Below are positions 30,720-31,042 of a stretch of 64,000 nucleotides of DNA, in pieces; position 1 is the first letter of the stretch; every line of letters begins with the position of its first letter. The notes beneath the pieces were generated by a model. The model saw only the letters and a program-made list of their open reading frames with translations, searched no databases and was not told the origin of the DNA. The DNA comes from Candidatus Hadarchaeum sp. (GTDB taxonomy: Archaea; Hadarchaeota; Hadarchaeia; Hadarchaeales; Hadarchaeaceae): positions 86,508-150,507 of the forward strand of contig NZ_JAVZIN010000001.1 of assembly GCF_038871235.1 (NCBI RefSeq), written 5' to 3'. The position numbers and the translations under genes are program-made.

Positions 30720-30871
30720 TGGCGCCGGGGAGAGGACTCGAACCTCTGACCGCTCGGTTGCTGTGCCCAGACGTGTCGTCTTTTTTTATTGAGGTTCGTT
30801 CTTCATTCACATCCGGTTTAACAGCCGAGCACTCTACCTACTGAGCTGTCGGGCCGCAACGGAACCCCGGC
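30720..30871 (-). tRNA. tRNA-Asn(GTT) with two introns: 16 nt at 8/9 (30848-30863) and 60 nt at 37/38 (30759-30818)
   Basis: Removal gives a 76-nt cloverleaf GCCGGGG-TA-GCTC AGTAGGTA GAGT-G-CTCGG CTGTTAA CCGAG-CGGTC-AGAGG TTCGAGT CCTCT-CCCCGGC-G-CCA; both junctions fold as BHB. Confidence 0.88.
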
Positions 30872-30875
30872 ATTT

Positions 30876-30882
30876 CCCCGGC
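30876..30882 (-). repeat. Second copy of the tRNA-Asn 5' acceptor strand (GCCGGGG) in the leader
   Basis: Minus strand reads GCCGGGG-AAAT-GCCGGGG. Confidence 0.85.
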
Positions 30883-31042
30883 ACTTCTTACTTTTCCACC
30901 GAATTCATAAGCTTTTGCCCAGTTTATCCCTTGCCCCCTCAGGAGCAAACTGCCTCTGCTCAGCTTTACCTATTCAGCAGTCGACAATGGTTGCTCATGC
31001 TCCTCTCTTCGTCCAAGCGGGTTCCAAGCATTGAGTCAAAAA

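Follow-up and report, generated by a model that had tools for sequence, protein, structure and literature searches.

Intron-bearing tRNA genes of Hadarchaeota with a leader-encoded duplicate of their 5' acceptor strand: probable role as a placeholder during splicing at position 8/9

To our knowledge, archaeal tRNA introns are thought to require nothing beyond the bulge-helix-bulge (BHB) motif. In excerpts of the respective reports, BHB introns at non-canonical positions are described for Thermoproteales, DPANN, Asgard archaea and Hadesarchaea (PMC4090602, PMC5829648), and for the split and permuted tRNA genes of Nanoarchaeum equitans, Caldivirga and Thermofilum pendens, leader and trailer are reported to form the BHB themselves and to be removed by EndA (PMC4090602, PMC3218864). 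An excerpt on the tRNA-Thr of Caldiarchaeum presents a model in which integrating mobile elements duplicate fragments of tRNA genes, with a 1.8-kb recombinase-bearing element between the copies (PMC3293823). The gene analysed here encodes tRNA-Asn(GUU) in an archaeon of the Hadarchaeota and contains two introns; all its features lie on the minus strand of a 64,000-nt stretch of DNA (Candidatus Hadarchaeum sp., contig NZ_JAVZIN010000001.1, positions 86,508 to 150,507). This entire stretch is referred to as the window and provides the coordinates; the source genome comprises 1.2 Mb in 16 contigs. One intron occupies the canonical position 37/38, the other position 8/9, and GCCGGGG, the sequence of tRNA nucleotides 1-7, is present a second time in the leader. 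This upstream copy is probably a transcribed surrogate of the 5' acceptor strand, which enables splicing of the 8/9 intron and is released afterwards. With the non-canonical introns described so far, the 8/9 intron shares the predicted splicing by proteins, the definition by nothing but a BHB, a non-canonical position and the location in a multi-intron gene; unlike them, it resides at a site that is not among the positions named in the excerpt of PMC4090602 (3/4, 20/21, 22/23 ... 59/60, "etc.").

The BHB of the 8/9 intron recruits the 5' strand of the tRNA itself. Its central helix H is formed by C3-G6 and CCCG close to the intron's 3' end, both bulges (G7 U8|U and A C|A9) comprise 3 nt and contain the cut sites, the inner hairpin h' of the intron is closed by CCG/CGG, and in the outer helix G1 and C2 are paired with C11 and G10. 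In an alignment of 22 distinct orthologous sequences, 95.9 % of the BHB cells are paired, as compared to at most 40.5 % if the partner is slid by 1-3 columns. Moreover, all four pairs of h' display changes on both sides (12 cells), a result reached by none of 500 shuffles. Among the 25 genes with an 8/9 intron specified below, helix H has 4 bp in 24 and 3 bp in one, h' (in fixed register) 2-5 bp in 24 and 0 bp in one, and the short outer helix h 2 bp in 21 and 3-6 bp in four; the bulges follow the general form G7 U8|N and N N|R9. Excision of the intron joins U8 to A9, and intron-less orthologues read GCCGGGGU-AGCUCAG without interruption. Judged from the high share of paired cells and the compensatory changes in all four h' pairs, the BHB of the 8/9 intron is real, and its splicing is predicted. 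Thus, the claim of an earlier reading of the DNA sequence alone (the sequence-only reading), namely that this BHB uses the tRNA's own 5' strand, proved correct, with C3-G6 located in H and G7/U8 in a bulge. The BHB cannot coexist with the 7-bp all-G:C acceptor stem.

The association between leader copy and 8/9 intron was assessed across 66 genomes of the phylum (genera and families are labelled g and f, respectively). A search pattern for 8/9 introns which ignores the leader retrieved 24 tRNA-Asn genes and one tRNA-Met gene, and a looser pattern, accepting any insert of 1-30 nt at 8/9, recovered the same 24 Asn genes. Intron-less Asn genes amount to 36 (32 found by pattern, 4 via other matches), and no Asn gene was found in 6 of the 66 genomes. 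In all 25 genes with an 8/9 intron, leader and 3' end can form an ungapped helix of 8-11 bp, which terminates 1-4 nt before the true +1, with spacers varying in sequence as well as in length. The copy is absent from 34 of the 36 intron-less Asn genes, their best helix having at most 7 bp and usually lying far from +1. In one of these 34 (genome G033), a complement of 7 bp, one of them G.U, is located 7 nt upstream and may be a remnant of the copy. Accordingly, the co-occurrence of duplicate and 8/9 intron which the sequence-only reading had asked for is borne out in the Asn genes (24/24 with and 2/36 without the intron), and a search for relatives retaining the intron without the duplicate yielded none among the 25 genes. 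The tRNA-Met(CAU) gene (genome G038, L049, C1:155792-155933) harbours a 19-nt 8/9 intron and the leader copy UGCCGGGG; with its spacer CUGA, the outer BHB helix attains 6 bp, and a CCA is not encoded. Intron-bearing and intron-less states both occur within the genera g1, g8, g9, g10 and g11, and the pair of copy and intron must thus have been gained or lost several times. Some Asn orthologues (L032, L033, L038, L046 and others) contain up to four introns (8/9, D arm, 37/38 and T loop), those in the D arm and T loop varying independently of the 8/9 intron.

Sequence conservation sets the copy apart from its surroundings. In a test with 24 genes (249 between-genus pairs), identity between genera is 0.91 for the copy, 0.38 for the 10 nt further upstream and 0.42 for the 4 nt directly before the copy, and the copy is retained over 10 genera in 3 families (f1, f2 and f4). 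It differs from the true strand, by wobble or truncation, in 7 of the 25 genes. In four genomes the copy reads GCUGGG(G); here, the C-to-U change keeps a wobble with G70 and loses the pairing with CCCG of the intron. The truncated copies GCCGG and GCUGGG carry the 5' extension UGGC, and GCCGGG carries UGGU, both extensions pairing with nucleotides 73-76. Independently of the copy, UGGU, UGGC or CGGU are often found at leader positions -4 to -1 (L096, i.e., G025 C1:40540-40940, and many intron-less Asn genes), where they complement nucleotides 73-76 (discriminator and CCA) and would extend the precursor acceptor stem to 11 bp.

The same design with another sequence is present in a tRNA-Lys(CUU)-like gene, which was recognized when weak tRNA matches were screened in 3 genomes. 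Of 8 low-scoring regions inspected, one represents this gene; the other seven comprise eight genes with D-loop, T-arm or anticodon introns, none of which has an acceptor-proximal intron. The Lys-type gene (acceptor stem GGGCCCG/CGGGCCC) was matched in 38 genomes and contains a 22-25-nt intron at position 9/10 in 10 of them (L098 in G025, L102, L105, L106, L117 and L131-L135). Its BHB again makes use of the 5' strand: C4-G7 and CGGG form the helix, and U8 R9|A as well as A N|G10 constitute the bulges. In all 10 intron-bearing Lys genes, (Y)GGGCCC directly precedes +1 and forms a second GGGCCCG overlapping G1, and the Lys gene of genome G015 has a full separate leader copy. None of the 28 intron-less Lys genes examined has the copy. 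Between the Asn/Met and the Lys type, 5 of the 7 leader:3'-strand pairs differ on both sides. Hence, with GCCGGGG in Asn/Met and GGGCCC(G) in Lys, the copy follows the acceptor sequence of its own tRNA.

Beyond the phylum, a scan of one genome per prokaryotic species with a leader-blind intron pattern returned 55 stretches, 16 of which were tRNA-like according to the filter applied. Of these 16, 15 are of the Hadarchaeota type, and the other stems from a Thermofilales archaeon; the remaining stretches lack a T arm plus 3' strand within 330 nt and mostly originate from G+C-rich bacteria, along with a few Hadarchaeota-type records whose genes escaped the filter. The Thermofilales gene, a tRNA-Phe(GAA) from a metagenome-assembled genome (L150:3440-3600), is interrupted at 8/9 by an intron of 29 nt and once more in the anticodon loop. 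At 9 nt before its +1 lies ACCGGGG, of which CCGGGG provides 6 bp to nucleotides 66-71, a weaker pairing than in Hadarchaeota. According to a manual count, this copy starts ~30 nt after a TTTAAT box.

Within the window, the heptamer GCCGGGG itself is common (17 matches versus 11.2 expected). In the genome under study, a strong complement between the leader and the tRNA's own 3' end is, by contrast, restricted to tRNA-Asn among the 37 tRNA genes (9 bp versus a median of 4), the second-best complement having 8 bp, mainly G.U, and only 15 of 20000 leader shuffles reach at least 9 bp. A genome-wide scan for the arrangement "X, 0-8 nt, X, then reverse complement of X" produced 55 hits, several of them overlapping registers of the same site, and the tRNA-Asn site is the only one of these at tRNA acceptor strands. 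A chance origin is ruled out by the conservation of the copy across genomes. In a tRNA-Thr-like gene without acceptor-proximal intron (acceptor GCCGCCG; contig C4, start 103052, plus strand, outside the window), the leader contains GGUUGUUG 1 nt upstream, which pairs with the 3' end over 8 bp including five G.U and resembles the acceptor strand with every C replaced by U; such cases are expected by chance ~0.5 times per genome, a rough estimate only.

The energetic effect of the leader was computed for the 25 genes from constrained ensemble energies (ViennaRNA), which take neither tertiary structure nor proteins into account; transcripts were assumed to begin with the first leader base that is paired. 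Without leader, the true acceptor stem forms with a probability (P) of 0.84-0.98, whereas the BHB helix has a median P of 9e-7 at 37 °C and 1.8e-4 at 70 °C. With leader, this median rises to 0.19 and 0.36, respectively. The ratio between both states exceeds 100 in 22 of the 25 genes (21 at 70 °C), and P of the BHB helix reaches 0.1 with leader in 14 genes (18 at 70 °C); an earlier run with 17 genes agreed with these results. Apparently, leader helix and true acceptor stem compete for nucleotides 66-72 as partners of comparable strength, and in these models it is the leader that decides on BHB formation. The sequence-only reading had proposed that the leader copy pairs with the 3' CCCCGGC and thereby frees the 5' strand for the BHB, to be checked by folding with and without the leader. 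Both the comparison of genomes and the modelled energies support this pairing.

Promoter spacing likewise points to the upstream copy. The first T of the TATA-like box (30910) is located 28 nt before the copy, in agreement with the sequence-only reading, and 39 nt before the mature +1. For 17 intron-bearing genes, the respective distances are 27-32 nt to the copy and 37-40 nt to the true +1. In intron-less orthologues, the box precedes +1 by 26-34 nt in 11 of 13 cases, a crude rule finding no nearby box in the other two, and the best TATA-like hexamer lies 25-34 nt before +1 in 27 of the 37 tRNA genes of this genome. The similarity to other tRNA genes which the sequence-only reading had seen in this spacing is therefore evident. 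Since the copy is at the distance from the promoter that is normal for a 5' end, transcription should start at or just before the copy.

The processing enzymes are represented in the genome as well. An archaeal RNase P RNA was recognized with 198 bits, and EndA by a single PF01974 match (115.5 bits) in an open reading frame of 179 aa on contig C10 (38604-39140, minus strand, outside the window). A tblastn search of the genome for a second EndA subunit or paralogue gave nothing better than E 0.39. In an excerpt of PMC5829648, an α4-type EndA with L3 loop is reported for Hadesarchaea, alongside heavy tRNA gene disruption. The 179-aa EndA would fit this type, and many tRNA genes of the present genome have non-canonical introns.

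The following course of events is proposed for the tRNA-Asn precursor. In the primary transcript, the leader copy would pair with the 3' acceptor strand (nucleotides 66-74, including U.G73 and G-C74), and the true nucleotides 1-8, set free in this way, would fold with the 16-nt intron into the BHB hairpin, to be cut by EndA at U8|U and C|A9. Because the 8-nt 5' exon would otherwise be held by only two base pairs, the leader helix probably keeps it attached to the rest of the tRNA until the ligase connects U8 with A9. Following ligation, the true strand would displace the surrogate, and RNase P would remove the leader of ~11-13 nt. If displacement takes place only after ligation, 8/9 splicing would precede 5' maturation. 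Overall, the placeholder function suggested by the sequence-only reading is supported in silico by the association with the intron, the matching of copy and acceptor, folding, promoter spacing and the presence of RNase P RNA.

Several points weigh against such a function. Even with leader, the BHB helix fails to reach a P of 0.1 in 11 of the 25 genes at 37 °C and in 7 at 70 °C. Once the intron has been removed in silico, the leader helix remains favoured over the true stem in 24 of the 25 genes at 37 °C (median +4.5 kcal/mol) and in 23 at 70 °C (median +2.5); secondary-structure energies thus offer no explanation for the release. With the leader shortened to its 7-nt core, the true stem wins in 9 of the 25 genes (10 at 70 °C), including all 6 with weakened cores, and in 5 of these 6 the BHB is no longer favoured before splicing. 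This modelled behaviour suggests a release in two steps, with RNase P removing the extension first. Co-transcriptional folding might form the BHB before the 3' strand exists, irrespective of the copy, and the position at which transcription should start is deduced from promoter spacing alone. Furthermore, UGGY before +1 is also found in many intron-less Asn genes, i.e., this extension is an ordinary leader feature and not specific for the copy; its register with the copy rather than with the true strand in intron-bearing genes is still informative. The acceptor stem is invariant within a tRNA family and offers no double compensation there, such that the evidence for pairing consists of one wobble-preserving change and the contrast between families. 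As copy and intron are 1-4 nt apart and co-inherited, the counts do not represent independent events.

Genus g16 deserves particular attention in this respect. Two of its genomes, G028 (L086) and G031 (L088), have a full copy (GGUGCCGGGG, spacer A or GAAGU) without 8/9 intron, and a third, G034 (L087), has a single copy behind the same upstream flank. From the sequences, this pattern looks like intron loss followed by collapse of the repeat, or like gain in the reverse order. Hence, the copy can exist without the intron, the tRNA presumably still maturing. On the other hand, an intron without copy in none of 25 genes and a copy without intron in two is the asymmetry predicted if the intron depends on the copy. 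The two intron-less copies fit an intron that needs the copy and not the reverse, but they show that the two are separable.

Among the alternatives, a general element pairing the leader with the 3' end (for protection of the CCA, or for timing of RNase P or 3' processing), to which the link with the intron would be secondary, is unlikely. It could account for UGGY complementary to nucleotides 73-76 in many intron-less Asn genes and two tRNA genes of L096, as well as for the two genomes with full copy and no 8/9 intron, but not for a copy in each of the 35 genes with an intron dependent on the 5' strand, its 7-nt form being absent from 34/36 intron-less Asn and 28/28 intron-less Lys genes and other strong leader complements being absent among the 37 tRNA genes of the genome. 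Still less probable is a neutral relic of a small tandem duplication that hitch-hikes with the intron and has no function. Physical linkage would indeed make co-inheritance automatic, the minimal form in genome G024 is a perfect tandem GCCGGGGU GCCGGGGU, and tandem repeats are easily gained and collapsed, with G034 resembling a collapsed G031. A relic should, however, hardly be kept over 10 genera and 3 families while spacers and flanks diverge (0.91 versus 0.38), nor should the changes observed in the copy preserve pairing; moreover, tRNA-Lys displays this design with another sequence, and a second phylum displays a weaker version of 6 bp.

Two readings of the upstream copy which dispense with a surrogate are both very improbable. 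According to one, the copy is the real 5' end of the tRNA, and spacer plus second copy constitute a mini-intron, or the intron is larger. The normal promoter distance of the copy would agree with this, and removal of any 8-11-nt frame within the repeat yields an identical mature sequence. With spacers as short as 1 nt, however, the removed piece would have 8 nt, too short for a BHB; the upstream copy is followed by A, G or U and not by a conserved U8, the copy is unlike the true strand in 7 of 25 genes, and the BHB that restores U8-A9 uses the downstream strand. According to the other, the copy is a DNA-level promoter or initiator element required ~28 nt after the TATA box, as might be concluded from the constant TATA-copy spacing and from the initiator-like pyrimidine found before the copy in 25 of 25 genes. 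Yet other tRNA genes carry unrelated sequences at this place, each its own acceptor strand, and the copy varies with the acceptor of the tRNA to which it belongs (Asn versus Lys). A target-site duplication was also considered and rejected, the intron being located outside the repeat and not between the copies. Removal of the leader by EndA was rejected likewise, as no BHB could be drawn at the -1/+1 junction.

Extending the surrogate strand to a general rule, one may speculate that acceptor-proximal archaeal introns occur only where the leader supplies such a strand, which would represent a general cis-acting RNA device, undescribed to date and spread over archaeal phyla, and a one-shot strand-displacement ratchet. 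This extension is possible, though rather doubtful. The surrogate would hold the 3' end and tether the 8-nt exon through cutting and ligation, until a first cut of RNase P at the pseudo +1 strips the UGGY extension. The surrogate, weakened in this way, would yield to the true strand, and a second cut would create the mature 5' end; "splice first, trim later" would thus be encoded in the RNA.

The gene is colinear on one strand from the leader through the CCA (Table 1), and the tandem of GCCGGGG with AAAT in between, which the sequence-only reading had described, is exact. Beyond the copy, the leader strand offers U and G able to pair with G73 and C74. ARAGORN did not detect the tRNA-Asn gene, and the Rfam tRNA model gave a partial match confined to model positions 9-63 (30.6 bits); an Rfam scan of the small region (E up to 10) returned this partial tRNA and two chance-level matches only.

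Table 1. Features of the two-intron tRNA-Asn(GUU) gene, with positions in the window
Feature	Position	Strand	Basis or remark
TATA-like promoter box CTTATGAA	30904-30911	-	sequence
Leader strand GUGCCGGGG, proposed surrogate 5' acceptor strand	30876-30884	-	9-bp ungapped complement to nt 66-74
GCCGGGG, upstream copy of tRNA nt 1-7	30876-30882	-	sequence
Spacer AAAU (AAAT) between copy and true +1	30872-30875	-	sequence
Exon 1, tRNA nt 1-8, GCCGGGGU	30864-30871	-	GCCGGGG (nt 1-7) at 30865-30871
Intron 1, 16 nt, position 8/9, UCCGUUGCGGCCCGAC	30848-30863	-	BHB alignment
Exon 2, nt 9-37 (D arm, 5' strand of anticodon stem, anticodon GUU)	30819-30847	-	Rfam tRNA alignment starts at A9
Intron 2, 60 nt, canonical position 37/38	30759-30818	-	BHB by eye, CUGU (32-35) with ACAG
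Exon 3, nt 38-73, including discriminator G73	30723-30758	-	sequence
3' acceptor strand CCCCGGC (nt 66-72)	30724-30730	-	complement of GCCGGGG
Genome-encoded CCA	30720-30722	-	sequence

The 37/38 intron contains an element of its own, the strongly conserved GAAUGAAGAACGAACCUCAAU (30788-30808, minus strand), within which CGAACCUC complements the T arm of the same tRNA (GAGGUUCG, nucleotides 50-57). Across 59 distinct Asn genes, the base following CCUC is C only in combination with G49 (16 genes); A occurs there together with A49 in 39 genes and together with G49 in 4. The start of GAAUGAAGAACGAACCUCAAU resembles a C box, yet no Rfam C/D family matches intron 2. Judging from its complementarity, the element may be a guide or a folding helper.

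If the upstream copy indeed serves as surrogate strand, it would explain how introns are able to settle close to the acceptor stem, why tRNA finders overlook genes of this kind and how an order of processing is enforced without extra proteins. It would also provide a natural example of an RNA strand-displacement device. For annotation, the rule follows that a leader copy of the acceptor strand should be sought.

Attenuators and the expression platforms of riboswitches rely on a strand for which two partners compete, and the winner sets the next step. By analogy, the 3' acceptor strand of the tRNA-Asn precursor would have two competing partners, the winner deciding on the next processing step; unlike in these helix switches, neither ligand nor ribosome would take part, intron excision would serve as the trigger, and each molecule would use the switch a single time. 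The intron itself is ordinary, and the leader helper element appears to be undescribed. A full-text literature search retrieved no account of an acceptor-strand copy encoded in a leader, nor do the excerpts of PMC4090602, PMC3218864, PMC11291895 and PMC5829648 contain one; the words "leader" and "acceptor" have 0 occurrences in PMC5829648. Within the part of the literature covered by this search, formation of a BHB that borrows a strand of a 7-bp all-G:C acceptor stem was not found to be addressed.

As in the excerpt on the tRNA-Thr of Caldiarchaeum (PMC3293823), a second copy of the 5' part of the tRNA resides upstream of an intron-bearing gene; unlike there, the gap between the copies is just 1-4 nt in 25 of 25 genes and holds no mobile element. 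With the split and permuted tRNAs, as far as portrayed in the excerpts of PMC4090602 and PMC3218864, the present system has in common that sequence outside the mature tRNA would pair within the precursor, present a BHB and hold the pieces for ligation. It differs from them in that the Asn gene is colinear, its halves being neither separately transcribed nor permuted, and in that the BHB consists of nucleotides 1-11 and the intron, whereas the leader remains outside the BHB, would pair with nucleotides 66-74 and is presumably removed by RNase P.

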